Shown here: one piece after another, positions 18,837 to 39,531 of the stretch
How positions within the stretch are numbered: the stretch's first letter is position 1
How the letters are laid out: the number at the start of each line of letters is the position of its first letter
NCBI GenBank assembly: GCA_963849325.1
Contig: CAWKHF010000006.1
Location: forward strand, 1 to 64,000
Reading direction: 5' to 3'
From: an uncultured Planctomycetota bacterium
GTDB taxonomy: Bacteria; Planctomycetota; Planctomycetia; Gemmatales; Gemmataceae
DNA length: 64,000 bases
Program-made: the position numbers and the translations under genes
The notes under the pieces: generated by a model
What the model was told of the DNA's origin: nothing
Databases searched by the model: none
The model's input: the letters and a program-made list of their open reading frames with translations, nothing else

Positions 18837-18875
18837 GGTGATCTCCTCCCCTCGAATCAAGAAGGAACCCCGATC

Positions 18876-20354: not shown

Positions 20355-20423
20355 CCCATGCGGACGCCCTCCGCCGCGCGGCCAATCTCTTTCCAAAAAA
20401 CTACTCCGGCAAGAAAGATACTT

Positions 20424-20516
20424 AACCACGGATAACACGGATAACACGGATGGGAAAATACCGATCATGAATGCGACGCTGTTTCTCTGCTTTCCTTATC
20501 CGTGTTATCCGTGGTT
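20424..20516. repeat. Nonamer tandem (ACACGGATA)n with inverted copy
   Basis: aaccacggataacacggataacacggat ... atccgtgttatccgtggtt. Confidence 0.85.
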
Positions 20517-20616
20517 CACTTGGTGCTGGTCTTTCGTGCCGGAGTAATAAGTGCGCACTTGGGGTCGCCGGCGCGCACTATAAAGGCGGGAAAACAACCC
20601 GAGGGAGAACGCGATC

Positions 20617-23600: not shown

Positions 23601-23990
23601 TGCGCGGCCGGTTGCAACCGGCGAAGGCCGTGCCTGCGGAAGAGCTGCGCCGCTTGCTCGCCGACCTGGACCACGAGCAGTTCCAGCGCCGCGAGTCCGC
23701 CACTCATCGTTTGAGCGAGTTGGGCGAATTGGCCGACTCCGCCTTGCGGGAGGCGTTGCAAGGCAAGCCATCGCTGGAAGTACGCCGGCGCATCGAGGGC
23801 TTGTTGGCCGAGCCGCGCCGGCTGCCAACAGCGAAGGAGCGCCGACATCTCCGTGCCATCCGCGTGCTGGAATCCATCGCCACGCCGGAGGCCCGCCGCG
23901 TGCTGGAGACGCTGGCGCAAGGGGCCGAAGCTGCTCCGCTTGACGCGCGAAGCGAAGGCGGCCCTGGCGCGATTGGCTCGTCGGCCCTGA
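20617..23990 (+). CDS. ECF RNA polymerase sigma factor fused to WD40 repeats and a C-terminal HEAT-like domain (frameshifts near 22405 and 23940)
   Basis: DRQLLERF...AFAALVRRHG..V..AEDVFQ, LDDELQRLPEKYR, RVDRFGDPLPDGALARLGT, many SPDG repeats and LRAIRVLESI. Confidence 0.88.
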
Positions 23991-23996
23991 AGGCCG

Positions 23997-24300
23997 TCAT
24001 GGCTCCGAGGACGGAGCGGCGACGTCTGGGACTGCGGAAGCGCACCGCGCGATGCCGTGTATTTCTTTCGTGCCGTTTGGCCCGCCAAGCAGGCGGCTCG
24101 GGCACTCGGAACAGCGGCAATGAAAGTACGGCCCGCCGGCCCATGCGGGCGACCAGCGGCGTCCGGCAGCACGGACAGCGCGCTTCCCCGAGGGTCTCGC
24201 TCGGATCGAGACGGCGCGTTTCGTCCGGTGCGCGCTCCGCGGCGGGGTTGCTGGCCAGAAGGACGTCAGGGGAGAGATGGCAACGGTAGGAATGATGCAT
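23997..24300 (-). CDS. Small zinc-ribbon hypothetical protein (frameshifted), distal end of phage-like cluster
   Basis: RCPCCRTPLVARM.., then FHCRC in the shifted frame. Confidence 0.45.
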
Positions 24301-24318
24301 GGGGAACTCCGGGATGGG

Positions 24319-24537
24319 TCAGGCGGCGGAGGGTCCGTCGGGGAACAGGGGGAGGCGCTGCTCGGCGCGCTCGGTGAGGCGGCGCAGGTGGGCCTCCCAT
24401 TCGGGCGTCCAGCCGCGGCGGCGCAGGTACAGCACGCGGATGCCCTTGACGGCGTGGCAGGCGGGGCAGAGATCCCGACCCGTGATGGGCGGTCTCTGCT
24501 CGCAATGAATGCAAACAGGATCGTTAAAGGGCGTCAT
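24319..24537 (-). CDS. Small zinc-finger hypothetical protein
   Basis: CIHC...CPAC followed by YLRRRGWTPEWE. Confidence 0.55.
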   Translation of the reverse strand: MTPFNDPVCIHCEQRPPITGRDLCPACHAVKGIRVLYLRRRGWTPEWEAHLRRLTERAEQRLPLFPDGPSAA

Positions 24538-24566
24538 GGGGAGGCGGCTAGGGCTGGGAGGCGGGG

Positions 24567-24782
24567 TCAGTTCTGTTCGTGGAGGCGTTTCTGGATCTGC
24601 TGGGCTTCGGGGACGAGGTTGCCCAGGGCGGTCAGCAGGGCGCGGGCGTCGCCGAGGGTCAGGGCGAAGCCGCGCGTCGAACTGCCGCCGGCGTGCTCCA
24701 GAAAGAGGATGACGTGTTCGACGCCGTCCAGCACGCCATCGGTGAGGGCGACAAACTGCATGGGGAAGGCTTCGAGGTGCAT
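24567..24782 (-). CDS. Hypothetical protein (start may lie upstream near 24857)
   Basis: Protein-like ORF in an operon-like arrangement. Confidence 0.45.
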   Translation of the reverse strand: MHLEAFPMQFVALTDGVLDGVEHVILFLEHAGGSSTRGFALTLGDARALLTALGNLVPEAQQIQKRLHEQN

Positions 24783-24939
24783 GAGAATCTCCTGGGCGGC
24801 GCGGTTCGGGGAGACCGGACGCGAATAGGTTGGGAAGAAGAGGGTCAGGCCGGGACATTGCTATTGTTCGCCGGCGAAACGAGACAATCAAGGGGTTGTT
24901 GATGTGTCAATTCGTGCCAGCGAGTGCCATTTTTCGGAA

Positions 24940-25423
24940 TCATCGCGGCGGGGTCGGTTCGGGCGGCCCGGCGAGCCAGGCGGCGAGGGCGGCGCGAGCC
25001 TCGGGGAACTCCGTCAGAGGCGGTCCACGCAGCGGCCGAAGAGGTGCAGCACTTCGGTCAGGATCTGCTCGCGGTCCACCGGCCTTCGTGGAGGCGGTGC
25101 GCGGCTTGCCGGGACCGGCCCAGCCGGGATTGTCGGCGCTGTCCTTGCCCGGACCCGCCTTGAGCCAGTCGAGCGGTTTGTCGGTCAGGGCGGTCAGCTC
25201 GGCGCGCAGCCGTGCCTGCGCCTGCGCCTCCATCACGGCCCGCGCGAACTCGCGGTAAGCCGGCGGCGCGTCCGGGCGTTGGCCGCGCTCCAGCCAGCGC
25301 GCGAACACGTCGCGCGGCAGACCGGCCGCCTCCGCCGCGACGTGAGGAAAGCCGCCGGCGCGGACGTAGGCGACGATCTGCTCCTGCAGGGCTGGCCGTC
25401 AGGCGATAGCGAGAGCGGGCCAT
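24940..25423 (-). CDS. Putative terminase small subunit-like HTH protein (frameshift near 25390)
   Basis: LT..LQEQIVAYVRAGGFPHVAAEAAGLPRDVFARWLERG...YREFARAVMEAQAQAR resembles phage TerS HTH plus coiled coil. Confidence 0.55.
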
Positions 25424-25432
25424 GCGGGCGAC

Positions 25433-26540
25433 TCACGAAGACAGCAGCAGGCGAGCCAGGCGACGCGGCAAGGCGGGACCGACGTACTCGAAGCCGGCCG
25501 TCAGGCGCGTCGTGGCGTGCCGGAGTTTCTTCAAGCGGCGTTCGCGGCCGGTCGCCAGCGACGGCGGCCGGTGCATGCGCCAGTGCGGCGACTTCTGGCG
25601 GGCGCGCATCATCGCCGGGTGCGTCGTCGTCGAGACGGCGCGGTAGCCCAGTGCCTTCCACATCGAGGCGACGACGGCCGACAGAGCGTTGCCGATGCCG
25701 ACGCCCTGAAAGTCCGGGAAGCGTGACGGTGCGGTGTTCGCGCCGCGTCGGCGGGCCGGCGCCGACGAACGGCAGCCAGGCGCTGAAGGCGACCGGCCGC
25801 TCGTTCCAGGTGGCGAGGAAACAGACGGCGCCGGGGTTGAGCTTGTGGCTCAGATAGTGGTGCGCAGCGAATAGCCGCCACGTCGATGTCCGGCAGCGAA
25901 CGATGTCGAGAGTGATGGTCGGTCGGCGTCGAAGACACCTCCAGGTGAAGGCGTTCTCGGCCGGCCGATACACCCAGTCCGGTTGCAGCCACGCCTCCAC
26001 GTCGTCATGGCAGGTCACGGCGATGAAGCGCTGGCCGCGTCCGCGGATGACCTTCGCCAGGGCCGCCGAGCCGATCTGCGCCACGGTGCGATCGACGACG
26101 CTGGTGTACTCGTCCATGACGGCCAGCTCCGGCGCCTCGGCGAGGAGACGGGCGAGCGTGACGCGGAACTGCTGGCCGGTCGAGAGGACGTGGAACGGCC
26201 GCAGCCACGCCGGCGGCGACGAGAAGCCGACCGCCGACAGCAGCGCCGTCACGTCCTTGATCGACAGCGCCGCGGGAAAGCCGTCCAGCAGCGCGGCGTC
26301 GCGCGGCCAGGAAAAATCGCGGTGGACGTGACGGGGCCAGAAGTGCCGCGCGATGGTGCTCTTGCCGCAACCCGACGGACCCGCGATCAGACCGATGTTC
26401 CACGGCCGCTCGTCGAGGGGCAGCGAAACCGTCCACTGCACGCGCGAGGTTTGCTCGATGGCGAGATCGAACATGCCGCATACCTGAGCGACGCGCGGCG
26501 AGAGGGCGATAGGCGATTCGACGGTGATGGTAGCGTGCAT
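25433..26540 (-). CDS. ABC-type ATPase fused to GNAT-like acetyltransferase (frameshift near 25720)
   Basis: Walker A GPSGCGKS, signature LSTGQQFR, Walker B MDEYTSVVDR and VTCH; then HHYLS, RTVTLPDFQGVGIG (acetyl-CoA motif across the frameshift) and TTHP. Confidence 0.85.
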
Positions 26541-26567
26541 GGGTGCGTTCCTGAGCGGGCAATCTCC

Positions 26568-26642
26568 TCCGAGCCTGAAGCGTAAGCGAAGAGCGCGATA
26601 ACCTTCGGTTATCGTTCTCTTCGCTTACGCTTCAGGCTCGGA
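26568..26642. repeat. REP-like palindrome family C (gagcctgaagcgtaagcgaag...)
   Basis: Hairpin; second copy at 39486-39531. Confidence 0.85.
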
Positions 26643-26648
26643 CACCAA

Positions 26649-27231
26649 TCACGACACGAGCGCTTTGCACTTCAACCCTTCCTCCTGGAAGCGCTGAAGC
26701 AGCTCGATCTGCGTCGCTTCGTCGGTACACTCGACGAGGATGAGGAACTGTTCGGGAATGTCTTCGGACTTGTCGCGCGGCGAACAAGCGGCGGTGAGCG
26801 CTTCCTCGACGGCGGCGTTGGCCCCGGCGATTGACGCCCACAGGTTGGCGACCGCGTCGGAGTCGGTGCGCGTCAAGGCTCCGCAGGCGATCCAGGGCGG
26901 CGTGGTCGTAGTCGGCCAGCTGGGCCAGCGGATCGAGCGACAGCAGCAAGGCGCGGGCCTCGGCGTCATCCACGTCCAGCACCTCAACCTCCACTTCCAG
27001 GTCGGGAGCGACATCCTGGCGCAGATGGCCGTCGATGAGCTTTAAGCGTCCGTCGGGCAACTCGTAGGCCAGCAGCGAGCGAGCGAAGCCGATCTCCGCG
27101 TATAGTGCGGCCAGCGCCGCTCGCTGCGCCTCGCTGTGCCGGCGCGGGTTCATCTCGTGCGGCACCAGGTCGCCGGCCCGCACGCGGACATGGGCCTTGA
27201 TGCGGTTGCGGATGGGTGTATCGGGATTCAT
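26649..27231 (-). CDS. ParB/Srx N-terminal domain protein (frameshift near 26878)
   Basis: DLVPHEMNPRRH, EIGFARSLL and LIDGHLR motifs; C-terminal ILVECTDEATQ.ELLQRFQEEGLKCKAL. Confidence 0.8.
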
Positions 27232-27232
27232 G

Positions 27233-27487
27233 TTATTTCGCGGCGATGGCCGCTCCCTTGATGTCGTCGATGGCCTGTTTGACCGCCGCTTCCACGGCGG
27301 ACTTGACGATCTGATCGATGTCGGCCTTGAGCGTCGCCATCAACGGGACGTGGCCGGACGTGGGTCCGGTTGCCGGGACAGGCTTGACGGCGCCCGGCAC
27401 CTTGACGCCGGCCCCGACGCCCAGGTGGCGCAGCAGCCAGCCTCCGAACGCCACGGCGGCATAAACGAGCAGGGATTCCAGGTTCAT
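27233..27487 (-). CDS. Small membrane protein (holin-like possibility)
   Basis: 84 aa with N-terminal TM segment; start overlaps the upstream stop. Confidence 0.55.
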   Translation of the reverse strand: MNLESLLVYAAVAFGGWLLRHLGVGAGVKVPGAVKPVPATGPTSGHVPLMATLKADIDQIVKSAVEAAVKQAIDDIKGAAIAAK

Positions 27488-28337
27488 TTGTCATCGCCTT
27501 TCCACAAGAGGAGGACCAGGAGGATCGCGCCGCCGACCCACAGCCACGGCGGAACGCCGGCGAGGCTCCGGTTCAGATCCGGGTCTTTTTCGGGTCGATA
27601 CGCGGGGTCGGCCCGGCGCAGCACTTCGGCCAGGGCTTCCGGCCCGCGATAGTCGTCTTGCCGGTGCAGCACCTTGCCGTCCGGCGCTTGACAGTAGAGA
27701 GTCGGGTTGCCGTCGCACTGGAAACCGGCGTCGCGCACGGCCCAGTGATCCGGCGGATAATCCTGCACCTTGATCTTGTCTTTCCAGGCCGCCAGCGCCG
27801 ACGCCGACGCCAGGTCGTTGACCACTTGTTTCCGCGCGGCTTCCGGGCCAATCACGGTCAGACACAGCCACTGGCTGTCGTTGGGCAGCGGAGGTTTGCC
27901 GATGGCTTGCAGGATTTCCGCCTTGCTGACCTCCTTGCCGTTGAGGAGGTGCTTGCCGGCCGAGGGCATTTTGGACAGGTCGAGTCCGAAATTAAGGGTG
28001 CCGTCCGGCTCGACTCGTGCCCGCCGACAGCAGACAGCGGCAACCCGGACAACAAGGTTTGCCCTGTGAGCACGCGCAGGCGTCGCCGCATGTACAGCCA
28101 TCGCAACAGCGGCAGGGCGGTGGACAGGCCGGCTCGCACGGCTCGCCCCAGGCACCGGGAGCCAGCAGCGGATGATAGACGCGGGTGGAGAAACGGTAAT
28201 TGCCGAGCTGGCGGCCATCGCTGCCACAGCGACACCTGGTCCGTATCGTCGGCGAAGGACCGCCATTCGTAGTCGGCGCGAAGCACGCCAGCCAGGAGAA
28301 GTCCGGCGAGGGAAGCGGAGAACAATAATTTCAACAT
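27484..28337 (-). CDS. Secreted, C-terminally membrane-anchored protein with Cys-rich segment (frameshifted)
   Basis: Signal peptide MLKLLFSASLAGLLLAG; Cys-rich stretch at about 28030-28150; C-terminal TM WLWVGGAILLVLLLW. Confidence 0.6.
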
Positions 28338-28345
28338 GGCGCACC

Positions 28346-29125
28346 TCAATTGTGGGGTGGAGGCGGGGGCGGCGATTTCAAGAGGCACACGACCCAACCT
28401 CCGCCGCCGCCCTTCCAGCGCTGGAGAAATTCATCCGAACTCATCCACACCAGTCGGCCATCGTCGGGAAAATTGTTATCGCAGACACACAGCCCAATCG
28501 GACTTCGCGATCGAAAAGGGGCAGGCAGACCATGTGGGCGATAATGCCGCCGTAATGGCAATCGCGGCCGTCGTAGGTGACGCAGGGCATGCGGCCGGTT
28601 CTGAAGGATGGCTTCCAGGATGTCGGGATCTCCCGACGTGTCCTGCAAGTACGGCACGCCGGGGGCGAAGCGGGCCAGCACCTGCTCGACCTTGTGCGGG
28701 TAGCCGCCGCCCTCGATGCCGGCCTGGACCAGCTGTTCGGGCAGGTCGTACAGCTCGTGTACCTGCTGCCAACGCGCGGCGTAGTCGATGCTGCGAAAGA
28801 CGCAGCAGCCCAGCCCCTTGCTGGCGATGTTCTTCTTGCGCTGGGAGGCGGGCAAATCGCAAACGATCTCCACGGCGCCATCCGGAGAGACGCGGCCGCC
28901 CTCGACCGGCCGAACGCCGATCTCCTTGTCTTCCAGCGGACAGGGGCCGGGTCCGGGACAGGGACGACGGGGCTTTTTCGGCCTGGGTTCATCGGGTTTT
29001 TTCGGTTCCGGTTTCGCCGGCGGCGGCGAAGGCGGCGGAGCGGGTTGGCGACGTTCGTGCCGGTCGAAATACCACCACAACAGCGCTCCGCCGATCAGCA
29101 GGGCGAGCAAGACACGATGTTTCAT
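28346..29125 (-). CDS. Membrane-anchored papain-like (C39-like) cysteine peptidase (frameshifted)
   Basis: N-terminal TM segment and Pro-rich linker; GLGCCVFRS, AHMVCL and CDNNFP give a Cys-His-Asp order. Confidence 0.55.
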   Translation of the reverse strand: MKHRVLLALLIGGALLWWYFDRHERRQPAPPPSPPPAKPEPKKPDEPRPKKPRRPCPGPGPCPLEDKEIGVRPVEGGRVSPDGAVEIVCDLPASQRKKNIASKGLGCCVFRSIDYAARWQQVHELYDLPEQLVQAGIEGGGYPHKVEQVLARFAPGVPYLQDTSGDPDILEAILQNRPHALRHLRRPRLPLRRHYRPHGLPAPFRSRSPIGLCVCDNNFPDDGRLVWMSSDEFLQRWKGGGGGWVVCLLKSPPPPPPHN

Positions 29126-29128
29126 GGT

Positions 29129-29389
29129 TCACTCCTTCACGGTTGCGGGAACGACGGCAGAGGAGGGAGGGGCAGCAGACGGAGGGAGCGCTTGCTCCAC
29201 CTGCTGAAGGACGGCGTTGCCGAGGGCCACCGCGCCGCTCGTCACGCTGCCCAGGTGGGCCTGGATTTCCGTGACGATCAATTGCCGCAGGTCTTCCAGC
29301 AGGGGATGCTTGGTTGACGGTGTGTAGAGCAGATGGCCGATCTTTGCCAGGCCGGCCTTCGCTTCCGCTTCCAGGGATGCCAGGTTCAC
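29129..29389 (-). CDS. Hypothetical protein
   Basis: Operon-coupled ORF (VNLASLEAEAK...). Confidence 0.5.
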   Translation of the reverse strand: MNLASLEAEAKAGLAKIGHLLYTPSTKHPLLEDLRQLIVTEIQAHLGSVTSGAVALGNAVLQQVEQALPPSAAPPSSAVVPATVKE

Positions 29390-29589
29390 GACTTCCCTCC
29401 TTCTCGAAAAAGGTGCTTGACGGTCAGGGCGACAACACAAGCCAGCAAGAGGACGCCGCCGGCGGCGATGCCCTGGCGGTCGGCGTGCAGGTCTTGCATC
29501 AGACGGATGGCCGGCTCGGGCAGGATGATTTCGACCTTCATCTCGCCCTTGAGCGGCTGCGGAATCAATTCATGGCGTTCCAGGGGCAT
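29386..29589 (-). CDS. Small single-TM protein
   Basis: GIAAGGVLLLACVVALTV TM segment; tight coupling to neighbours. Confidence 0.55.
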   Translation of the reverse strand: MPLERHELIPQPLKGEMKVEIILPEPAIRLMQDLHADRQGIAAGGVLLLACVVALTVKHLFREGGKS

Positions 29590-29592
29590 GGC

Positions 29593-29772
29593 TCACTCCC
29601 GGCGAAAGAGGACGAAGAGGACGGAGAAAACGGCGACGGCCACGAGCAGGCCGTCCTTGAAGCCGGCCAGGTAGGCCGTCTGCAAGGCGGCCTCGCCGGC
29701 CTTCAGGGCGTCGTGGACCACGACCGGCGGAGCGTGCGGCGCCCACGGCCAAAGCCAGGACCATGTAATCAT
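29593..29772 (-). CDS. Small single-TM protein
   Basis: MITWSWLWPW...LLVAVAVFSVLFVLFRRE. Confidence 0.55.
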   Translation of the reverse strand: MITWSWLWPWAPHAPPVVVHDALKAGEAALQTAYLAGFKDGLLVAVAVFSVLFVLFRRE

Positions 29773-29785
29773 TTTTTCGCTCTCT

Positions 29786-30096
29786 TTAGTCGGTTGAATA
29801 ATCCGCGCAAACCTTGCACTGCTCGATGGTGCAGGTGGTGTGAATCTCACAGCCGCGTAGCCATTTGCCGGGACAAGGACAATCGAGTTTGTTCAGGATC
29901 GGCCCCAGATAGACACAAGGTAGGTTCCTCACCGCGGGCAGCCTCGCCGCCACGGGTTCATGGTCGCGGCAATAACACTGGTGCAGGTGTTGGCATCCAC
30001 GCCCTCCGGGCTGACGATCAGCTTGGGCGACAGACAAAGATAGCGGCCCGGTTTCCGTTCGTGGCCGCGCCAGCGGCACAGGGGTAAGGGTTCCAT
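29786..30096 (-). CDS. Small Cys-rich protein (frameshift near 29978)
   Basis: MEPLPLCRWRG...LCLSPK...CYCRDH...CVYLG...CPCP...CEIHTTC...CKVC. Confidence 0.55.
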
Positions 30097-30100
30097 CTCG

Positions 30101-30249
30101 GAGTCTGTCTTGTAAGCCCCTCTCCCCCGGTACTCCGGGGGAGAGGGGTTGGGGTGAGGGGGTGCGGTTTCCGCGGGTTTCTCGCCCCCTCACCCCCAAC
30201 CCCTCTCCCCCGAGTACGGGGGAGAGGGGCTTGCCGGATACACTCTCAG
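30101..30249. repeat. REP/MITE-like composite hairpin element, family B
   Basis: Near-identical to 59156-59310 (cccctctcccccggtactccgggggagagggg...). Confidence 0.9.
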
Positions 30250-31256
30250 ACCGGGGTTAGAGTGGCCGTGGCCGGGTAGCCGGTGCAGTTGAGGTTCGTC
30301 GGCGTAGTCGCCAGGTTCAGCGTCAAGGGAGTTTGACAATCCCAATTAGTGGTGTCAGCCTGGTAGGTCACGTTATCCACGCCGAAGTCGAGCTGTCCCA
30401 AGATGCCGCCATTGAGAATGCTGAAGGCCACGTCTTCGCCCGGCGGATTGCAGTACAGCGCGGGCTGACTCCTCCAGCTGCAGGTATCGACGTAGGTGAG
30501 GACGGCTCCGTCGAGGTTGCCGCAGTCGGTGCAGCTGACGTTGCCGACGCCGGGCAAGCTGACCTGATATTGATTCGGCACCGTTACACAGTGGCCGCAC
30601 TGCGCTCCGATAACCTGGGTCAGACTGCATGTCGTCGTTAAAAAGCCGGAATTCGTGCCGGGCGTGAAGGTGGCCGAGACGGCATAGCTTCCGGCCGTAT
30701 TCGTGCTCCAGGTACACGCCGCCGTGCGCACATTGGTGTTGTCGGGGTCCAGCTCGGGCAGGTCCACCGTGCAGACGACCGTTCCATCCACCGAGAAACG
30801 GACCGTGCCCCAGGGGGCCGCGCCAAATCCCGGCCGGCCGTCGGTGTTGGTGATGATCGCCGTGAAGGTGATGTTCTCTCCGGGATAGGCCGGGTTGTCG
30901 CTGGAACTCAGGCTGCACTCCGTGTTGCAGTTGCCGCAAGGCTGCGGCGGCGCAATCAGGGTGTAGCCAAACTTCCGATACAGGAAGCGATGCACCCATT
31001 CGCCGGCAAAGGCCCAGACCTGGGCCAGCTCATAGAGCTGCTTGGCCAGCGGTCCTTGCGTGCCCGGATAGAGACAGCACACGCCCGGCACGCCGCCCTG
31101 TCCCCGGTACGCTCCCGGCCCGTGGTCGGCGATCTTCTTGTCCTTCTGGCCGTGGTTGAACTGCACGGCGATCCGGTTGTCACAAGTCAGGAAGACCTTG
31201 TGGACCCAGTTGGAGGGGCTGGAGGGTAGGAAACACGACTTGGCCTTGATTGCCAT
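30246..31256 (-). CDS. KTSC-like domain plus Ig-like domain plus Cys-rich C-terminus
   Basis: SNWV....IAVQF.HG...CLYP....LYE..Q....GEWVHRFLY.KFGY resembles KTSC; LSSSDNPAYPGENITFTA...GTVRFSVDG...AGSYAVSATF resembles a bacterial Ig domain. Confidence 0.6.
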   Translation of the reverse strand: MAIKAKSCFLPSSPSNWVHKVFLTCDNRIAVQFNHGQKDKKIADHGPGAYRGQGGVPGVCCLYPGTQGPLAKQLYELAQVWAFAGEWVHRFLYRKFGYTLIAPPQPCGNCNTECSLSSSDNPAYPGENITFTAIITNTDGRPGFGAAPWGTVRFSVDGTVVCTVDLPELDPDNTNVRTAACTWSTNTAGSYAVSATFTPGTNSGFLTTTCSLTQVIGAQCGHCVTVPNQYQVSLPGVGNVSCTDCGNLDGAVLTYVDTCSWRSQPALYCNPPGEDVAFSILNGGILGQLDFGVDNVTYQADTTNWDCQTPLTLNLATTPTNLNCTGYPATATLTPV

Positions 31257-31260
31257 GGAC

Positions 31261-32236
31261 TCAGCCCTGGTCGTTAGCGATGGAGCGGCGCACGTAGGGA
31301 GCGAGCAAAGCCCGCACGTCGGCCGGCGGCTGCGCTCGCGGACTGAACAGCGCCCCCCAGCCGCTGGCGGTGCCGCCGGCGGACACCTGATGCAACAAGG
31401 CCGGATCGCGCTGCGTCGCAAACCAGGCGTAAGACACCCAGCGAGCGCACGCCTCCTGCACGGCCTCGGGGACAATCGTGTACCCCGCCGTGTACTGGAT
31501 GCGGAAATTGTTGATGCCGACCGGCCAGACCAGGTCTTCGGGGTGCAATAACTCCGGGTCGGTATAAGGGATGGCGCGCAGCAGCCAGCCGCGCGCGTCC
31601 CACTGATAACCCTGCAGCTCGTAGGTGTGCATCTTCAACTCGGCGAAGCAGCCGCGCGCGTTCGCGTAGCCCTGGCTGGTCTGGACGCCCTCGATCTCCA
31701 GGGGATCGCCGTAGGAGGCCGGGACGTACAAATCAGCGGACGGCCACAAGCCGTAATCGCCCGACTGGCCGTACTGCTGGGCCGCATCGCCGACAATCTG
31801 GCCGGACCAGCCGTTGCCCAGGGCGGTGACGGCGTTCATCAGGGCGTTCAGCGTGGGATAGGCCGCCCAGGTGAGCAGCGTCTCGGTGACGGCCGTGCCC
31901 GATGCCATGCGCCGGCATTGCAGCCCCGTGGAGGTCACCTGGACGCGGGCCTGCTGATTCAGGCTCGGTGTTGTTGTTGATCACCTTCGCCACGGTGACG
32001 GGCCGATAGCGCACGCTCTGCACGCTCTGCAGGGGATACTGCCGGAGCAGCAATCTCCGGTCGCCGTTGCCGTTGTACAGTTCGTCGTAGGACGCCGTCA
32101 CGAAGCGGCGCTTGCAATACTTCTCGATGGCGTCCGAGTACGCCGTGATGAGCGCCTGCACGGTCGCATTGCCCGAGGCCAGGCCGTTCAGGTTCAGGTC
32201 CGCCCGCGCTTCGGTGATGAGGTCTTTCGCGGCCAT
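31261..32236 (-). CDS. Phage head-tail connector/adaptor (HK97 gp6-like) with large insertion (frameshift near 31965)
   Basis: LITAYSDAIEKYCKRRF, LRQYPLQSVQSV, IQYTAGY..VPEAVQEA and PADVRALLAPY. Confidence 0.75.
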
Positions 32237-32257
32237 TGTCCGTCTCCGTACACAGGG

Positions 32258-33046
32258 TCAGGGCGTTCCCCATCGGCTGCGGGCGTAGGCGAGCCATGCA
32301 GACAATTGCCAGGCCGGCAAGGGGTAATTGCAAACCACGACCTCGCCGATGTCGCCGGCGTAGAAGTCCGCCCCGCCGCGCGAACCCACTTCGAGGACGT
32401 TGGAGGGATAACTCGCCAGGCTGCTCGTGTCCGGGCTGGTCACCGTCCCGGCCCCGTCCACGTCGAGGCTGCTGGCCTGGGCGGACTGGTCGAACTGGGC
32501 GTGGTAGCAGTGCCAGCCCGAACTGGCCGAGCCAAAATCGAGTGTTCCCACTCCATCATCGATTAACCATTCGGGGGTGACTCCGCTGCTGTTACAGCGA
32601 AATTCTCGTTTGACTTCGTGGGTGACCACGATCATCCCAAAGGCATCCGCCGCGCTCCGGCTGGTGACAACGAGAATGGTTTGACCCGTCTCGCCGCTGA
32701 ATCCTTGAGGCGACGCCTGGCTCAGCCAGGTAGATGTCCCATCGAAGCGCACCACGTTTTGTCCATTCTGGATCGCTCGTTTGAGTGCGGGGCGGTCGGC
32801 GCTCGTGGTCTGCGTGACGTGGTTGCCGTGACCGGATTGGTCTTGCCACAAGCCAATCGGATCGCCGTCGGCCATGGCCGGCGTCGTACCGCCGCTGTCC
32901 TGGTACAGTCCTCGGTCGGCCAAAAGCCAGAGGACGGGTTTCAGCTGCAAGGGAGTGAAGCCGGCGAAGGTCGGACGCAGCCCCGTGTTCGGACTGGCGG
33001 CCCAGGCGGCGTTCCCCGTCATTTCCAGGCGGTGCCTGCTTGCCAT
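32258..33046 (-). CDS. LamG/concanavalin A-like virion fibre or spike protein
   Basis: LWLLAD.GLYQDSGGTTP..DGDPIGLWQDQSG.GNH..Q....RP, VRFDG and GDIGEVVV...AYARSRWG. Confidence 0.65.
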   Translation of the reverse strand: MASRHRLEMTGNAAWAASPNTGLRPTFAGFTPLQLKPVLWLLADRGLYQDSGGTTPAMADGDPIGLWQDQSGHGNHVTQTTSADRPALKRAIQNGQNVVRFDGTSTWLSQASPQGFSGETGQTILVVTSRSAADAFGMIVVTHEVKREFRCNSSGVTPEWLIDDGVGTLDFGSASSGWHCYHAQFDQSAQASSLDVDGAGTVTSPDTSSLASYPSNVLEVGSRGGADFYAGDIGEVVVCNYPLPAWQLSAWLAYARSRWGTP

Positions 33047-33056
33047 GTCGGTCCTC

Positions 33057-33323
33057 TCATTGCACGGAGATCCAGTTGACGTTGCCGGTCGCGGACGCGG
33101 TTTTGGCATAGACCTGGCTGACGTTGCCGCACGGGATGGACAGGGCCTGGCCGGGTTGGAGGACGAAATACTGGTTCGTCGCGTCGCCGACGAGGACGTT
33201 CACGGAGTTGCCGGGATCGTTTTGCACGACCACGGAGCTGCACGGTTGGCTGCCCAGTGCTGCCGCCGTGGTCGTGGCCGCCAGTTGGCCGGCCTTGGGA
33301 TTATCGCCGGAAGAAAGAGACAT
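33057..33323 (-). CDS. Small beta-rich virion protein (possible head-spike base)
   Basis: 88 aa, beta-strand-rich (SVVVQNDP.N..NVLVG...LQPGQALSI); lies between the decoration and fibre genes. Confidence 0.5.
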   Translation of the reverse strand: MSLSSGDNPKAGQLAATTTAAALGSQPCSSVVVQNDPGNSVNVLVGDATNQYFVLQPGQALSIPCGNVSQVYAKTASATGNVNWISVQ

Positions 33324-33346
33324 TTTACACCTCCGTTGCCCTATTC

Positions 33347-33398
33347 GTTTCGCCGCGACGCGCAACGGAGCGCGCTCCGTTGCGCGTCGCGGCGAAAC
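33347..33398. repeat. REP-like palindrome family A inside the capsid cluster
   Basis: Hairpin with a matched G>A / C>T change in both arms relative to the other copies. Confidence 0.88.
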
Positions 33399-33853
33399 TC
33401 AGTTGACCACGGTTTGACTGACCACGCTGGCGTCGTTCTGGCGCTGCCCGGTTTGTGGTCGGCCTCGTCGCCGAAGCCGACGACGGCGATCGGGATGGTC
33501 GGACTGGTGCCGCCCACGGTGCAGACGGCCTGGAGGCGGACATGGCGGGCGCCGCTGTTGAGCTGGTCGGCCCGAATCTCCAGCGTCGCTTGTTTGCTCG
33601 CCGCCGTCACGGTGGCGCTGGGGATGACGGCGTTGTTGGTCCACGTCGTTCCGTCCGGACTGTCCTGGATTTGCAGGGCGGCCGACAGCGTTGGACTGGT
33701 GCCACCGAAAACGCCCGTCTCGAAGAGGAAGAGGGCGCGGTGGAAGACGGACATATCGACCTTGCCACTGGTGACGGTCGCGGTCCCGGTCAGCGTTTGC
33801 GGCGATACGGGCGCCGCGAGGCCCAGGCGCTGCGTGAGTTGTTCGGTATACAT
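33399..33853 (-). CDS. Putative capsid decoration protein (frameshift near 33440)
   Basis: Immediately after MCP; VDMS.F, LQIQDSPDGTTW and RHVRL, Thr/Ala-rich. Confidence 0.6.
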
Positions 33854-33867
33854 GCGGACTCCTGAGT

Positions 33868-33978
33868 AGGGTTTAGGGTTTAGGGTTTAGGGTTTAGGGT
33901 TTAGGGGTTTGGGATACAGGGGACGGGCGCGGCCTGTTGATCTTCACCCTAAACCCTAAACCCTAAACCCTAAACCCT
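33868..33978. repeat. Heptamer tandem (GGGTTTA)n with inverted (TAAACCC)n
   Basis: Directly visible just downstream of the MCP stop. Confidence 0.9.
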
Positions 33979-33979
33979 G

Positions 33980-35295
33980 TCAGTTGAGGGCGACAAACGG
34001 CGAGACCTGCGTCGCTGGAGTCTTGCAGGGTGATGGGTTTTTCGATCCACGGCTGACCGTCCACGCGCTCCAGAGACGCGCCACGTCATCTGGTTCTTGA
34101 GGAAATTCACGTGTTCCGAGGCGGCGATCTCGATCTGCATGCGATCGCCGACGACGTACAGCGACGGATCGAGCAGCATCAGGTCGCCCTTGGTGCCCAG
34201 GGCCGGCAGCTTCTCGCTCGGGAAGGCCGGTCGGCCCAGCAGCGACCACACCGGCGATTTCGTCGCGCCCTGATCGATGCTGATGAAGATGGCCCGGTTG
34301 GCGCCGTCCTTGAGCTGCAACAGCTGCGGCACCACGCTGGGCGAGAACACCCAGATGGCCGTGCTCCACGACGACGGCAGCAGCTTCGACCACATGGTCG
34401 CCACGTCGTTGAAGCTGACCTGGTTGTTGGTGTCGCGCGTCTTGGTCAGCGTCGCTCCGGCCGTGAGCATGCCCTGCGGCTTGCCGGCGCCGTTGCCCTG
34501 CAAGAAGGCGTACTCCTCGAACCAGGCGATCGACTTGGCGAACAGCGTCATCAGGAACTTTTCCAGGCCGAGGATGCTGTCTTGCAGCAGCACGTTGGAG
34601 CTGACGCAGTAGCCGGATAGCTCCCACGCTTTCAGCTCCATCTGCTTGAACTGCGGTTCCGTCTCCTGGCGCGTCTGCGCCTCGGCCGTCCAGTACATCT
34701 GCAAGCCGCCGAAGAATGGTGAGACGCCGGCGCTCTGGGTGGTGGTGATGTCCAGGTAGGGGATTTGCAAGCTGGCCCCGGCCATCGGAATAACGAAGGT
34801 GCGCGGCCGGATGAACGTCATCTCGGCGACGATGCTCATGAGCTGCTCGAACAGCTCCGGCGGCACCGTGTAGCCGCCGCTGACGCCGGACGACTCGGCC
34901 AGCGCCGCCTTCGTCTGCCAGGCGACGAAGTTGCTGCCGTAATGCTTCTCCAGGTAGCGGGCGTCATTGCGAGCGCAGGCCAGCAGCCAGTCGCCGAAGC
35001 ACTTGCCCGGATCGCCGCTGCCGCCGGCGCCGAAGAGGGCCGGCAGGGCGTGCTTGCGGGCCAGACCCTGGGCCTGGCCGAATTGTTTCAGCGCCTCGTT
35101 GACGATGGTGTCCAGGCCGCGCGTGAAGCCGGACAGGGTGCTCTCCATCGCCTTGGTCACCAGCGGGGCGATCGGATCGTCGCTGACGGCCTTGGCGATG
35201 CCGGTGGCGATCAGCTGCCGGCCCTCGGCCTCGCCGAGATGGATGCGTTCGCCGGCCTTCTTGCCGAGGAAGTCTTTCAGTAGTTCGACAAACAT
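33980..35295 (-). CDS. HK97-type major capsid protein (frameshift near 34072)
   Basis: GGYTVP, WTAEAQ, SSNVLLQDS, AFLQGNGAGKPQG, LLGRP and DPSLYVVGDR...SEHVNF; ends SPFVAL. Confidence 0.93.
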
Positions 35296-35434
35296 GGGGG
35301 ATGCTCTCGGAGGTCCACGGATGGGAGGAGGGATCACGAAATCATCCGTCCATCTCGGAGGGGGACCGGCTGAACGCTTGGCGTCGTCCTCCGCCGGCCC
35401 GCCCGGACGGCTTCGATGAGGCAGGAATTGTATC

Positions 35435-36296
35435 TTACACCCGGCCAATCGATTTGTACCAGGTCTCTTTTATCGCTTTTTGGGCTAATGCCGGAAAGTC
35501 GATGGCAGCGATCCGGCGGAGAACGTCATTCTCGATCTCGCTCAGCGACGTGAACGGGAGGATGCGCTCGTGGGCGCCGCCGTCGCCGTCGCCGAACAGT
35601 TGTTTGTTCAGTCCCAGTGCCGTCAGCACGTCGTCGCTGAGTTCCAGGCTGCCCTTGGCGACGCTTTCGACCAGGGCGTCCTGATTGGCCGGCAGGAAGA
35701 CGCAGGCGTATTCGAGCAGCAGCCATTCGTCGATGACCAACCCGACGGCGTTGCCCCAGCCGTTCTTGTGTACTTCCTTGCTGTCGGGGACGTGCGCCTT
35801 GACCGGCAGAAAGCCGATGGACTTGCCTTGCAGCAATCCAGCCTGAATGAGAGCGAACACCTGGTCGGACGGCCACGGGTCTTGCGCCGGCCACGTCTGG
35901 GGCCGCGCGGGGTAGACGGTCTTGGCCTTGACGCCGACGCGGGCGCCGTCTTTGACGCGCTTGCGCCACAGCGATTTGCCCACCGGCGGCAGAGAGTAGG
36001 CATGGCCGAGCGTGACGATGGGGTTGGCCTGGAACTGCGCATCGTTCATGCCCCTGGCGAGGACCACTTCGCCGGTGCGGTCGGGGCTTTCGCTGCTGAT
36101 CCAGCTCGACGTCGCTGCGTTCGCCGGGGTTGATCTCCGTCGCCGCCTTGGTGGTGACGAGATGGCGATACTCGTACTCCGGCGTGCGCGGCAGCGTCTT
36201 GAGCAGCGTGTCGAGTGCATGGGCGGCGCGGTCGAGCATGGGGAAGCCGAGCGGCCCCTCGACCGGGCCGTAGTGCGAGGTGAGGAAATCGGGCAT
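35435..36296 (-). CDS. HK97-type prohead protease (frameshift near 36105)
   Basis: DRTGEVV, NPIVTLGH, PVGK, GKSIGF and LLEY.CV.LPAN. Confidence 0.85.
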
Positions 36297-36308
36297 GATG
36301 AGCAAACC

Positions 36309-37715
36309 TCAATCGAGTTTCGGATTGTCTTCAATGGGCGTATCCGGTTGGGGCGGCCGAGCGCGTCCGCTGTGGGGCATCTCATCTTGGCGCGGCATGT
36401 CGGTGCGTTCCCATTGCAGCGGCAGCCACGGCACATCGCCCCACGGTACCGGCGGCAGGCCGCGCTCGCTGCGGATCTCGTTGATCGACACCACGCCGTA
36501 CTTGAGGTCGGCGATCTGCTGTTCCACCAGCAAGTTCTGATCGACCGGCACCGGATCTTCGCTGGCGAGGAACAGTCGGCCGGTCGGGTCGAACCGCGGC
36601 ACCAGTTGGGCGTTGAGCTTTTCGTCGCGGCGCTCCAGGCGCGGACCGATGGCCAGGCTCATGTGCTGGCTTTGCGACGCTTGCAAGTTGGCCAGGTTCG
36701 TCTGCGAGGTCAGGAAGGCAATCGGGACATGGAAGGCGTTGGCGATGTCATTTTTCGTCGCCGCCATGTCGGCCAGGGCGGCGAGGTCGCCCATCGACTG
36801 GTTGAGCAGCGACACCTTCAGCGACGACTCGGCCACGACCACCTTGCCCGTACCGCCCCGACGGAAGCGGTTGTTCCACTGCGTTTCGAGGCGGTCGCGC
36901 TCCTCCTCGCCCATGACTTCGTCGGGCGAGACGATGGCGTCGGGGATGGCATGGTTCTCGAACTTGGCCTTCTTGAAGGCGGCGTATTCGCTGGTGAGGG
37001 CGGCCTGCTCGAAGCAGGCCCGCAACGGCGACAGGCCGCTGGTGTACGGGTCGCGCGGATCGGGATAGGCGAAGTGGATGACCTGTTCCGGGGCGAAGTG
37101 CTCCTCACTACGGCCATTGCGATAGAGGTAGTAATCCACCAGGTTCGGGCTGTTGGGATCGCGGCGCGGCGTGACATTCTGCGACGGCAAGATCCAGATG
37201 GCGCGCGGCACGTTCCGCACCGGATCGAGGTCGAGATACCAGTAGGCGCTGCCGTGGACCTCCTGATACAGCGTGGTCAACTCCCAGAGATCAAATGCGG
37301 TGTGTGCCTGATTGGCGTACTGGAGCAAGGTCAACAGCGGGTGGTCGGTGACTTCCTCAATGCGGGCGGCGCTCTTGGTGCGCGTAGGCAGATGCGGCAG
37401 CGAACGCAGGCGGCGCTCTGTCCGCGGCGATAGTGCTTTCGTCAGACACTTCGGCCGCGGCTGATTGTGTTCGGTAATGACATACAAACGCGGTGGATAA
37501 TTGGCGCAGGTGGCGGCGTTGACGCTGGCGCAGGTCCAGGCGGTGTTCTTCAACTCCGCCAGGATCTCATTCGGCGTCGGTTGTCGGTTGCGCCGGTAGC
37601 TATCGACGAAGCTGGTGCCGGTCCACTGCGAGCCGGCCAGCGCGAACGGCATGCTCTTGGGCCGCACCCACTGGGCCAACCGCAGCAGCGTTTGGGCGAG
37701 GAGAGTACGCATCAT
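36309..37715 (-). CDS. HK97-family portal protein
   Basis: HPLLTLL, HGSAYW, EQVIHF, GLSPL, IANAFHVP and SINEIRSERGLPP; start overlaps the TerL stop. Confidence 0.93.
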   Translation of the reverse strand: MMRTLLAQTLLRLAQWVRPKSMPFALAGSQWTGTSFVDSYRRNRQPTPNEILAELKNTAWTCASVNAATCANYPPRLYVITEHNQPRPKCLTKALSPRTERRLRSLPHLPTRTKSAARIEEVTDHPLLTLLQYANQAHTAFDLWELTTLYQEVHGSAYWYLDLDPVRNVPRAIWILPSQNVTPRRDPNSPNLVDYYLYRNGRSEEHFAPEQVIHFAYPDPRDPYTSGLSPLRACFEQAALTSEYAAFKKAKFENHAIPDAIVSPDEVMGEEERDRLETQWNNRFRRGGTGKVVVAESSLKVSLLNQSMGDLAALADMAATKNDIANAFHVPIAFLTSQTNLANLQASQSQHMSLAIGPRLERRDEKLNAQLVPRFDPTGRLFLASEDPVPVDQNLLVEQQIADLKYGVVSINEIRSERGLPPVPWGDVPWLPLQWERTDMPRQDEMPHSGRARPPQPDTPIEDNPKLD

Positions 37716-39004
37716 GACAGCTTGGTCCACAAGTCCTCAGGATCGATGCCCTGGTCCACAACCGGCTTCCGGTCGCCGTGCTCGCCGGAGCGCTTGCGAA
37801 GCCGGGCGATGAAGTGCGCGTCCAGGCGCGAGATGAGATAGCGCAGGGCGCCCAGGGCGTGATTGTGGTCGTCCACCGGGTTTTCGCCGCGCAGGAGGCG
37901 CTCGGCCGCCGTGGGATAGCGATACAGCCGCGCTTCGCGGAGAAGGTTGGGGCAGGCGTCGCGCCGCACCTTGAGCCGGCCGGTGCGCAGACGCGCCGCG
38001 ACGGCGGCGATGCCCGGCCGAATGTCGTTATCGCCGCGGCGGACGACCCGGCCGCTCGCTCGCAATTCCTCGATCTCGGTACGGCCGGCGGGATCGGCGT
38101 ACCACATCACCTCGCCCAGCTCGCGCAGGGCGGCGGCGTGTTCGTGCAGCGGCGTCTCACGGCGGTAGCGCTCGCCAGCGATCCACAGCACGTCATCGCG
38201 GTCGAGCACGCCCCACACCGCCGCGAACGGATTGCGCCAGCCGAAATCGATGCCGCCGACCAGCCGGCCAGAGACCTCCGGCCAATCGTCCACCAGTGCC
38301 TGCTCGAAATCGGGATAAACCAGACCTTCGAGAGCGGTAAAGAGACATTCGTATTCCTGCTGCACCCACGACAGGCCCATCGCGCGCGTCTCCTCGGCGA
38401 TGAACGACGGCGTGATGCGGGGGCAATCGCGCCAGGTGATGCGGACCTTTTTCCACGGCCCCTCGCTCTCCCACTCCTGCCAGAACCAGCCGCGTTGGCC
38501 GAACGGCGTGCTCAGGGCGACGAGCCGTCCCTGCGACACGGCGAGCATGGGGCGGACGCTGCGATACAGGTCGTCGGGGATGCGGGCGGCCTCGTCGAGC
38601 ACCAGCAGGTTGACGCCGCCGAAGGAGCGGATGGTGCCTTCGCGTCCGGGCAGACAGAGGACGCGCGAACCGTTGGCCAACTCCAGGCGCAGCTGCGTCT
38701 GCTGTCGCGCCGGCAGCGGTTTGCCCAGCGCCTTGTAGGCGTCGAGCACCTTGCGGAAAATCTCGCTGCTCTGCCGCTGCGACGGCGACAACAGCAGCAC
38801 CAGCGCGCCGGCCGTGAACAGGGCCGTGTGCAGCGCCAGGGCGCTGACGACGGTGCTCTTGCCGCTCTGGCGGCTGCAATTGAGTAAAATTTGACGCTCG
38901 GCGGACAAGAGGAATGCTCGCTGCCAGGGGTCGGGAGGGATGCCACGGGCCTCGAGAATGCGGGAGGGATCGAGGGCCAGGGCGAGCAGATGTTGCAGGT
39001 CCAC
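37712..39004 (-). CDS. terL: Terminase large subunit
   Basis: PWQ adenine motif, Walker A SRQSGKS, Walker B LVLDEA, STP coupling motif, QEY and RNase H-like GIDFG. Confidence 0.92.
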   Translation of the reverse strand: MDLQHLLALALDPSRILEARGIPPDPWQRAFLLSAERQILLNCSRQSGKSTVVSALALHTALFTAGALVLLLSPSQRQSSEIFRKVLDAYKALGKPLPARQQTQLRLELANGSRVLCLPGREGTIRSFGGVNLLVLDEAARIPDDLYRSVRPMLAVSQGRLVALSTPFGQRGWFWQEWESEGPWKKVRITWRDCPRITPSFIAEETRAMGLSWVQQEYECLFTALEGLVYPDFEQALVDDWPEVSGRLVGGIDFGWRNPFAAVWGVLDRDDVLWIAGERYRRETPLHEHAAALRELGEVMWYADPAGRTEIEELRASGRVVRRGDNDIRPGIAAVAARLRTGRLKVRRDACPNLLREARLYRYPTAAERLLRGENPVDDHNHALGALRYLISRLDAHFIARLRKRSGEHGDRKPVVDQGIDPEDLWTKLS

Positions 39005-39149
39005 AACTTCGATACTATCCTGATGAAGGGGGTTGTTAAGAGAGCAGATTTGACGATTTTCCTGGGTTTTTTCCGCCCGTCCAATCGGCGAGGTGGTGTA
39101 GAATGAGAGAGCGACTCGTGGGGGATGGATAGATCGCGGAGGTGCTGCG

Positions 39150-39392
39150 ATGCCGGTGCTCCATCTGAAAGACATGCCGAACGAGGTTTACGAACGGCTT
39201 CGGCAACTCGCCGCGGTTCATCAAAGTAGTCCGGAAGCGGAAGCGGTTCGTCTACTCTGCTATCTTCTACTCGAACATCCGTCCGATCGTTCCCAGGCGG
39301 AACTCCTGGCCGAGCTGCGCCGCTGTAGTTTTACTCCGCCGCCCGGCACGCCGGACAGCGTCGCGCTGCTGGCGGAGGACCGGGGACGATGA
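39150..39392 (+). CDS. FitA-like ribbon-helix-helix antitoxin
   Basis: MPVLHLKDMPNEVYERLRQLAA...S.EAE...DSVALLAEDR; overlaps the PIN gene start. Confidence 0.75.
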   Translation: MPVLHLKDMPNEVYERLRQLAAVHQSSPEAEAVRLLCYLLLEHPSDRSQAELLAELRRCSFTPPPGTPDSVALLAEDRGR

Positions 39393-39485
39393 TTGCCAGC
39401 CCCATCGCGTGCGTGGTGGATGCCAGCGTGGCCATCAAGCTGGTCATCACGGAACCTCTGTCGAATGAAGCCTTGAAGCGAACAA
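39389..39485 (+). pseudogene. Truncated VapC/PIN toxin
   Basis: VVDASVAIKL..EP.S..A PIN N-terminus; the ORF runs into a family C palindrome and loses the rest of the domain. Confidence 0.7.
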
Positions 39486-39531
39486 CGAGCCTGAAGCGTA
39501 AGCGAAGAGCTTCGCTTACGCTTCCGGCTCG
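39486..39531. repeat. REP-like palindrome family C
   Basis: Homologous to 26568-26642. Confidence 0.85.

Follow-up and report, generated by a model that had tools for sequence, protein, structure and literature searches.

The genome of an uncultured soil Planctomycetota bacterium of the family Gemmataceae (GenBank assembly GCA_963849325.1; 8.16 Mb in 14 contigs, hereafter G000) harbours, on its contig C6 (CAWKHF010000006.1), a phage-type head-and-packaging operon of which the analysed window, i.e., the first 64 kb of this contig, contains the full length. According to Pfam, PHROG and tblastn matches, this operon, called below the element, consists of a single string of co-oriented genes located on the minus strand, which runs from ~39,040 down to ~24,030 and covers ~15 kb. 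Its first half successively comprises a promoter, the large terminase TerL, the portal, the protease, the major capsid protein (MCP), a cement-like protein, a variable slot and a head-tail adaptor, and its second half a slot for Ig-like, Cys-rich and transmembrane proteins, a peptidase, a signal/transmembrane protein, a ParB-like protein, an ABC-ATPase/GNAT fusion, a TerS-like protein and three small open reading frames (ORFs). The same gene order and content had been proposed in a sequence-only reading of the window, prepared without any database search, and are borne out by the Pfam and PHROG matches. The ends proposed there are equally suitable, 39004 being the GTG codon of TerL and 23997 lying just past the last small ORF, where the similarity between species stops. 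That description contained neither the ~12 frame changes of this copy, nor the promoter, nor the tRNA-Ala anchor, and its KTSC label for one of the genes finds no Pfam support at E<=0.01. At the level of sequence, the comparisons reported here establish an intact, conserved and selection-maintained tail-less head-and-packaging operon endowed with a predicted promoter of its own.

All the genes of the element described hereafter are encoded by the minus strand, and coordinates preceded by a tilde derive from tblastn high-scoring segment pairs (HSPs) and ORF lists. The comparisons involve ten other species of the genus, designated G001 to G010, and more distantly related loci designated by L-numbers. 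The head module opens with TerL (37712-39004, GTG start at 39004; phrog_7579, 1.7e-55; PF03237 and PF17289), followed by the portal (36309-37730; PF04860, 2.9e-42; phrog_2662, 1.3e-54) and a weakly recognized S78-like prohead protease (~35435-36296; phrog_80, 6.4e-7; PF04586, 0.006, below the cut-off). The MCP (~33981-35298; PF05065, 9.7e-40) belongs to the HK97 fold and displays an N-terminal extension of ~130 residues; the capsid protein of RcGTA was its only, remote, match (2.2e-7) in a sequence search of the PDB. A protein of 150-170 residues, g150 (33341-33853; phrog_5707, 2e-6), directly follows the MCP throughout the family. Its relatives match phrog_28483 (up to 4e-36) and, below the cut-off, the Bbp16 cement-protein family PF21190 (7e-5), and g150 is a candidate cement or decoration protein. 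The variable cargo slot between g150 and the adaptor (32258-33365) is occupied here by a small beta protein (33057-33365) and a LamG-domain protein (32258-33109; PF13385, 4e-4; phrog_10356 "virion structural protein", 4.9e-16), and elsewhere by a GT2-like gene (G006), a gene of 215 codons (G009) or five genes (G002). The head-tail adaptor (31264-32236), which consists of 315 residues in intact orthologues, is read in two frames that match successive halves of phrog_442, a family matched at 4.7e-29 by the intact orthologue from G006. Searching the PDB by sequence with the adaptor and the cement-like protein yielded nothing meaningful. Modelled with AlphaFold on the basis of 23 aligned sequences (pLDDT 82.3), the adaptor finds its best fold matches in the neck protein of phages T5/DT57C (E 1.6e-4, TM-score 0.69 normalized by target) and in the neck chains of RcGTA.

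Downstream of the adaptor lies an Ig-like protein with a Cys-rich C-terminus (30246-31256; PF16640 (Big_3_5), 1.4e-7; PF07705 (CARDB), 6e-7). An Ig-like gene occurs at this place in five of the eight genus copies, with orthologues in G005, G001, G008 and G007. The four small ORFs that follow (29129-30199), one Cys-rich, two with a single transmembrane segment and one of 103 residues, are variable and devoid of family matches; in G006, a stretch of ~190 bp stands in place of 29107-31398. A sequence of ~100 bp, which makes up the 5' part of this variable stretch (30100-30199) and is found in the window again at 59159-59257, recurs in at least 20 places of the genome with 60-94% identity when translated and is probably a dispersed repeat of the REP/MITE (repetitive extragenic palindrome/miniature inverted-repeat transposable element) type. 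The next gene codes for a candidate membrane-anchored papain-like peptidase (28346-29125), an orthologue of g256 from G006, for which the Atlas lead is Peptidase_C39_2/C70 (0.92, mostly viral clusters). It is followed by a conserved protein with an N-terminal signal/transmembrane segment and a C-terminal transmembrane segment (27484-28440), recognized by tblastn and alignment as the orthologue of g290 from G006; in the Atlas, this protein falls in viral hypothetical clusters (0.96), with a thioredoxin-like fold occurring only at TM-scores <0.5. The protein with a ParB-like N-terminal domain (26649-27231; phrog_620, 4.8e-9; phrog_498, 1e-10) and the ABC-type ATPase-GNAT acetyltransferase fusion (~25430-26540; phrog_11143, 2e-87; PF00005, with the GNAT domain PF00583 in orthologues) form a two-gene module which is common in phages, e.g., gp85/gp86 of phage Jace, which precede TerS by a few genes. 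Homologues of the fusion protein occur in 91 phage records, the best of them sharing 44% identity. The TerS-like protein (~24900-25425; HSP 25102-25392) is identified through its orthologues, which match phrog_4102 "terminase small subunit" at 1.2e-10 to 3e-12. Three small conserved ORFs close the element (24030-24782), namely g71 (24567-24782), the Zn-ribbon protein g72 (24319-24537), which recurs after TerS in distant members of the family, and a second Zn-ribbon protein (~24030-24290). The only trace of an HNH domain in the genus element is a weak match of the g72 region to phrog_20467 (0.0033).

A sigma-70-type promoter is predicted on the minus strand at 39012-39039, with a -35 box TTAACA, a 16-nt spacer and a -10 box TAGTAT. 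It represents the sole promoter-like match on both strands of the region 23600-39500 and is conserved in seven same-genus copies, the homology between species beginning ~30 bp upstream of the -35 box. Owing to its position 7 nt upstream of the GTG codon of TerL, the messenger would be nearly leaderless. A scan for terminators returned 14 matches against 11 expected. The GC content of the element (0.63-0.70) resembles that of the remaining window, in agreement with the host-like composition noticed previously.

Within the genus, the search for a syntenic cluster suggested by the sequence-only reading finds at least part of the element in eight of the ten other species. Seven of them share 88-91% identity in the MCP and keep the entire 15-kb cluster collinear, and in the eighth, G004, the distal half is present on a contig which ends inside the element. 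Maximum-likelihood trees inferred from rpoB (11 genomes) and from the TerL-to-MCP region (8 genomes) share the fully supported clades (G000, G002, G006, G009) and (G001, G005) without any supported conflict. The ratios of nonsynonymous to synonymous substitution rates (dN/dS), estimated by the Nei-Gojobori method from five short-read genomes, point to purifying selection on all eleven genes compared (0.072-0.289): 0.072 for the MCP, 0.101 for the portal, 0.128 for the protease, 0.141 for ABC/GNAT, 0.148 for TerL, 0.174 for g150, 0.182 for the adaptor, 0.204 for ParB, 0.226 for TerS, 0.272 for the peptidase g256 and 0.289 for the transmembrane protein g290, with 0.077 for rpoB. The mean dS ranges from 0.69 to 1.0 for TerL, portal, protease, MCP, g150, ParB, ABC/GNAT and TerS (0.75 for rpoB) and from 1.4 to 1.7 for the adaptor, g256 and g290. 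The pairwise dS values rank in the same way for the element and for rpoB, G001-G005 and G006-G009 being the closest pairs. Among closer pairs of IMG/VR contigs (dS 0.26-0.45), the head module similarly shows dN/dS values of 0.08-0.14.

A tRNA-Ala(GGC) gene, detected by ARAGORN at 18346-18419 on the plus strand, is proposed as the ancestral anchor of the element. Together with an LPG-synthase gene, it faces the end of the element in G000, G002, G009 and G004, i.e., in both main clades, at a distance of 25-39 bp in G002 and 5.6 kb in G000. The gap between tRNA and element contains genes for a PD-(D/E)XK endonuclease, a sulfatase and a sigma70-WD40 protein in the window (18420-24000), other genes in G004 and almost nothing in G002, and looks like an accretion hot spot. 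In G007 the element resides 430 kb away from tRNA-Ala(GGC). The host genes neighbouring the element in G001, G005, G006 and G008 map to different contigs of G000, so that the background synteny is low. Matching trees, dS values, the shared tRNA site and low dN/dS thus argue for one ancestral insertion at tRNA-Ala, followed by vertical descent with selection on every core gene. These results indicate, as far as comparative data go, that the element is vertically inherited, with every core gene under purifying selection, and that it is not decaying; the host-maintained, domesticated unit suspected from the outset is supported by its co-divergence with rpoB, a dS equal to that of rpoB, its dN/dS of 0.07-0.29 and its common tRNA-Ala locus in four species.

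The copy of the element present in the window contains ~12 frame changes of 1-2 bases. Nucleotide alignments with intact orthologues reveal eight private 1-2-base insertions, which consist of one base in the protease (near 36021-36106, as compared to G006), the MCP (~34074), the adaptor (near 31956-31967), the signal/transmembrane protein, ParB (~26877) and ABC/GNAT (~25730), and of +1 and +2 in the peptidase; about four further changes, read by eye, affect TerS (about three) and the last Zn-ribbon ORF. However, rpoB of the same assembly (C1:334,900-338,700) is split over at least four frames by eight private 1-2-base insertions and one 1-base deletion within 3,747 bp, and three of 11 other host genes with close short-read orthologues account for four frame changes in ~8.7 kb. 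With ~1 indel per 1.3 kb, the element does not exceed the density of host genes, and the core genes are all open in four of the five short-read genomes. The few-contig assemblies G000, G002 and G007 are 74-85% complete, with a fragmented rpoB in G000 and G002 and an intact one in G007, and the many-contig assemblies of the genus have intact rpoB and element genes. Because rpoB and other host genes of this assembly carry similar indels, the frameshifts of the element are, judged by these alignments, assembly errors and not decay. Occurring at the general error rate of the assembly, they do not amount to the read-confirmed inactivating mutations in core head genes which the sequence-only reading had named as a sign of a decayed remnant. 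In error-rich long-read assemblies, frameshifts alone are no proof of pseudogenisation, and pseudogene calls in this genome need read support. The sigma70-WD40 gene of the window is also apparently split, in overlapping frames (20617-22860 and 22385-24286).

Beyond the genus, relatives were collected by scans of GTDB genomes and IMG/VR, 80 loci being returned from each. Most of the loci from Gemmatales and other Planctomycetota exhibit the order TerL, portal, protease, MCP, g150, [cargo], adaptor, [cargo, peptidase, transmembrane protein], ParB, ABC/GNAT, TerS and g72. Some relatives that share this gene order, at 45-76% MCP identity, possess mobility genes of the satellite type just upstream of TerL, which disagrees with the earlier statement that the element fits none of the known classes. 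In L166, a serine recombinase, AlpA and HNH precede TerL in a locus running on to ABC, and in L164, L179, L180 and L030 a Prim-Pol/AAA_25 primase and HNH occupy this position; AlpA is found there in L026, L067 and L095, and AlpA plus Prim-Pol in L087. Altogether, AlpA occurs in L026, L030, L067, L087, L095 and L166, Prim-Pol/AAA_25 in L030, L057, L087, L164, L179 and L180, and a serine recombinase in L166, L160, L079, L103 and a remnant on contig C12 of the own genome. The HNH upstream of TerL is clear in these relatives (PF14279, 3e-10). In a quick FastTree phylogeny of the MCP (125 rows), the clade of the genus (20 rows, support 100) is nested in a larger one at whose base L164 and L166 branch. 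None of the 20 rows of this clade has a match to a mobility gene, and absences elsewhere in the tree are soft owing to the few tblastn references and the many truncated contigs of this survey. The nearest MCP from a known phage, that of the Streptomyces phage Dagobah, shares 35% identity.

In agreement with the sequence-only reading, no integrase, repressor, replication or tail gene, AlpA and primase included, was found in the element or in the 3-5 kb flanks of seven same-genus copies. The absence of att repeats announced at the same time holds for five of the seven copies, which lack flanking direct repeats of >=11 bp; in the remaining two, a match of 13 bp (window) and a palindromic, dispersed repeat (G005) were noted. 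No direct terminal repeat (DTR) or circular form was detected among the 80 IMG/VR contigs. The relatives with satellite genes and the nested position of the genus clade lead us to derive the element from satellites resembling the phage-inducible chromosomal islands of the capsid-forming type (cf-PICIs); read from gene content and phylogeny, its descent from satellite-type elements, with loss of the mobility module in this genus, is well established. Real decay in the element family is exemplified in the same genome by the degenerate relative on C12 (329,500-334,600; L013:7526-12604), which associates a large serine recombinase, an AlpA-like helix-turn-helix protein and an AAA_25 fragment with only a C-terminal fragment of the MCP, 42% identical. 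Permuted orders are observed in L097, where ParB, ABC, TerS and g72 precede protease and MCP, and in L093, where g72 precedes TerL, as would follow from a circularisation of the ancestral element and its integration at various points. Metagenome-assembled genomes (MAGs) labelled Alcaligenaceae or Acidobacteriaceae (L061, L071, L077, L079, L082, L087 and others) contain Gemmataceae-type copies with 42-77% MCP identity, and these labels are probably wrong.

The genome scan with tail and tape-measure hidden Markov models (HMMs) proposed beforehand gave no phage tail match. The own genome has no match to PF10145 and TIGR01760 (tape measure), to PF06199 (Phage_tail_2) or to TerL_ATPase, and its single Phage_portal and single Terminase_6N matches both belong to the element. 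Any tail would thus have to come from an infecting phage, no helper having been recognised. The one sheath match of the genome was considered as a source of tails and discarded, belonging as it does to an extracellular contractile injection system (eCIS) with Pvc16, AAA ATPase, gp25 and VgrG. No tail-like machinery turned up in the genome other than this eCIS (C4:503,300-520,400; L046), whose cluster comprises sheath, gp19-like tube, Pvc16_N, AAA ATPase, CIS_tube, VgrG-like spike and gp25 and has no link to the capsid operon. Pfam and PHROG disclose neither tail nor holin genes in the element, no search having been aimed at holins. Among 112 cargo ORFs from 20 related loci, no PHROG match to tube, tape-measure or terminator proteins was obtained, the fibre-like exceptions being a 561-residue tail-collar-fibre-like gene right after the adaptor in L080 (2e-40) and a weak match in L063. 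Gaps between core genes do not exceed 6.7 kb in the loci checked by eye, the largest separating g150 from the adaptor in L154. L052, taken at one time for the carrier of a tail module after the adaptor, runs into a DNA polymerase gene instead. No tail module appeared in any related locus examined, and none of the relatives examined sits inside a complete tailed prophage, a situation that would have been the mark of a decayed remnant.

The core of the cf-PICIs is made of 11 components, i.e., integrase, regulator, primase-replicase, HNH, TerS, TerL, portal, protease, capsid, adaptor and connector; their definition excludes tails and holins, and SatelliteFinder needs at least nine of the 11 components (PMC10085698). 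As described for these islands, tail-less T=4 capsids with a 15.5-kb genome are released and later acquire tails from phages (10.1101/2025.02.11.637232), and the hosts are mostly Proteobacteria and Firmicutes (PMC10085698). Like the prototype EcCIEDL933, the element has TerS, TerL, portal, protease, capsid and adaptor of the HK97 type, no tails and a size of ~15 kb. However, it contains only about six of the 11 components, namely TerS, TerL, portal, protease (weak), capsid and adaptor, and lacks the integrase, the AlpA/MerR regulator, the primase-replicase, a clear HNH and a recognised connector. It also differs by the large serine recombinase that serves as integrase in its relatives, by its host phylum Planctomycetota, by the additional conserved ParB + ABC/GNAT pair, peptidase and transmembrane protein, and by its co-divergence with the host. 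Judged by gene content, the element fails formal cf-PICI membership but plainly belongs to a related lineage.

Gene transfer agents (GTAs) such as RcGTA resemble the element as ~15-kb structural and packaging clusters devoid of integrase and replication genes, inherited vertically under purifying selection, and RcGTA structures are among the best, remote, PDB matches for the adaptor fold and the MCP sequence (MCP E 2e-7). In RcGTA, the tail genes are g8-g15. The element shares with GTAs both vertical inheritance and purifying selection but not the combination of head and tail genes, and its origin lies in a satellite rather than directly in a phage. Encapsulins, HK97-fold shells without portal or terminase, differ in that the element has a portal and a TerL, both under selection. 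With defective HK97-like prophage remnants the element shares a head module standing alone in the chromosome beside a tRNA gene, with deletion (G008) or loss (G003) in some lineages, but it is set apart from them by the selection acting on every core gene, the conserved promoter and indels no commoner than in essential host genes. Literature searches brought up no account of elements of this kind from Gemmataceae or Planctomycetes, nor of a domesticated satellite, and Planctomycetes do not appear in the main text of the NAR survey (PMC10085698).

We regard it as somewhat more probable than not that the element is a domesticated or immobilised capsid-forming satellite, fixed as a vertically inherited locus at tRNA-Ala(GGC), which makes tail-less, DNA-filled capsids. 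The operon would be transcribed from its own sigma-70-type promoter, yielding a terL message almost without leader. A small HK97-type head would be built from portal, protease, MCP and cement-like protein, the 15-kb element corresponding to the size class of the T=4 cf-PICIs, then TerS and TerL would fill this head with DNA and the enlarged adaptor would cap the portal. Release may be assisted by the membrane-anchored peptidase together with its partner protein. Being tail-less, the particles would become infectious only with tails borrowed from an infecting phage, in the manner of cf-PICI capsids, or would act tail-free. With the excision and replication genes gone, packaging would most likely take place in situ, starting near terS and running into the neighbouring chromosome. 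The outcome would be a device akin to a GTA or to lateral transduction, and not a satellite that mobilises itself. A more specific scenario, possible though clearly the more tentative, is the domestication in Planctomycetota of a satellite, instead of a phage, into a GTA-like system kept by the host at tRNA-Ala, which would package in situ from near terS into ~15-kb heads and move the adjacent fast-changing island between cells by means of the tails of passing phages or without any tail.

Several points weigh against a domesticated satellite producing capsids. Both in-situ packaging and tail borrowing are steps that we infer, and the absence of tails is drawn from a handful of HMMs and from an error-rich assembly 84.7% complete. 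No head-closure (stopper) or connector gene was recognised in the conserved core, and the HNH which accompanies TerL in the relatives is missing here, the match of g72 being weak (0.0033). In the copy of G008, TerL is missing and the portal lacks its N-terminal half, and no match was obtained in G003 (82% complete) and G010 (64% complete), so that the locus is dispensable. The flanks differ in G001, G005, G006, G007 and G008, which could mean relocation rather than rearrangement. In addition, all the relatives are MAGs from Gemmataceae/Gemmatales. A search of sequencing runs yielded three soil metagenomes, each sharing 5-6% of the words, and no RNA run.

The different flanks in five species would also suit a satellite that is still selfish and transmissible, with a helper phage inducing it and supplying tails, excision and replication in trans, or with the serine recombinase and AlpA of the C12 relative fulfilling the latter tasks. 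Purifying selection would then serve the spread of the element within each species. The existence of close kin with a full satellite toolkit, the selected TerS and TerL, the serine recombinase and AlpA still present on C12 and a 15-kb size matching the 15.5 kb given for EcCIEDL933 (10.1101/2025.02.11.637232) speak in its favour, but seven same-genus copies and their flanks contain no integrase, AlpA or primase, no att repeats were found around them, and the 80 IMG/VR contigs include no DTR or circular form. Moreover, tree and dS follow the host without any sign of transfer between species, and both clades share the tRNA-Ala site; we consider this explanation rather improbable. Long retention under purifying selection without mobility genes could also reflect an anti-phage device kept by the host, in which heads and adaptors that capture phage tails, or a terminase that cuts or competes for DNA, lower the yield of the infecting phage, gene transfer being incidental. 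The conserved and enlarged adaptor fits this idea, as does the interference of satellites with their helpers, although the effect of the cf-PICI prototype on its helper is negligible (PMC10085698). A PADLOC search of 33 element and cargo proteins gave no match to a known defence family beyond a local ABC-motif match in one of them, and no sensor or regulator gene was recognised, which leaves an unlikely proposal.

A decaying prophage or satellite remnant devoid of present function is the reading most clearly disfavoured by the data and appears very unlikely. The ~12 frame changes of this copy, the truncated copy of G008, the lack of a match in G003 and G010 and the degenerate relative on C12, reduced to the C-terminal fragment of its MCP, would suit it, but the 1-2-base insertions are at or below the density found in rpoB and other host genes, the orthologues are open in short-read genomes, dN/dS stays within 0.07-0.29 when recent pairs are compared as well, and the promoter has been conserved. 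Finally, the element could represent a complete but unusual virus or particle with an unrecognised attachment organ, a minimal spike of the podovirus type made of the LamG, Ig-like or tail-collar proteins encoded next to the adaptor. The "virion structural protein" match of LamG, the tail-collar-fibre-like gene after the adaptor of L080 (2e-40), the weak fibre match of L063 and the Ig-like gene after the adaptor in five of eight copies are compatible with such a spike. All these genes, however, belong to the variable cargo and not to the core, which offers no conserved nozzle-, tube- or needle-sized gene and, in the loci checked by eye, no gap above 6.7 kb, and this last explanation has very little probability left.

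What appears to be new, on the present comparisons, is a cf-PICI-like lineage in a new phylum, together with a stripped, vertically inherited and tail-less derivative whose evolution recalls that of a GTA. Elements that form capsids but no tails seem to make up a large family across the Gemmatales, satellites being otherwise described mostly from Proteobacteria and Firmicutes. To our knowledge, almost no phages of Gemmatales are known. One lineage of this family would represent a satellite after the loss of its mobility genes, kept by selection over the whole divergence of the genus. Gene transfer agents have been proposed to evolve along such a route of lost mobility and retention, but here it would start from a satellite. 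If particles are made, they would provide a testable case of host-maintained tail-less DNA-filled capsids and would raise the question of which benefit pays for them, gene exchange, defence or another one.

Elsewhere in the window, the region 45000-48300 has a low GC content (0.55-0.57 as compared to ~0.65) and contains genes for a PIN-domain protein and a ParE-like toxin. It is probably a small acquired toxin-antitoxin islet.

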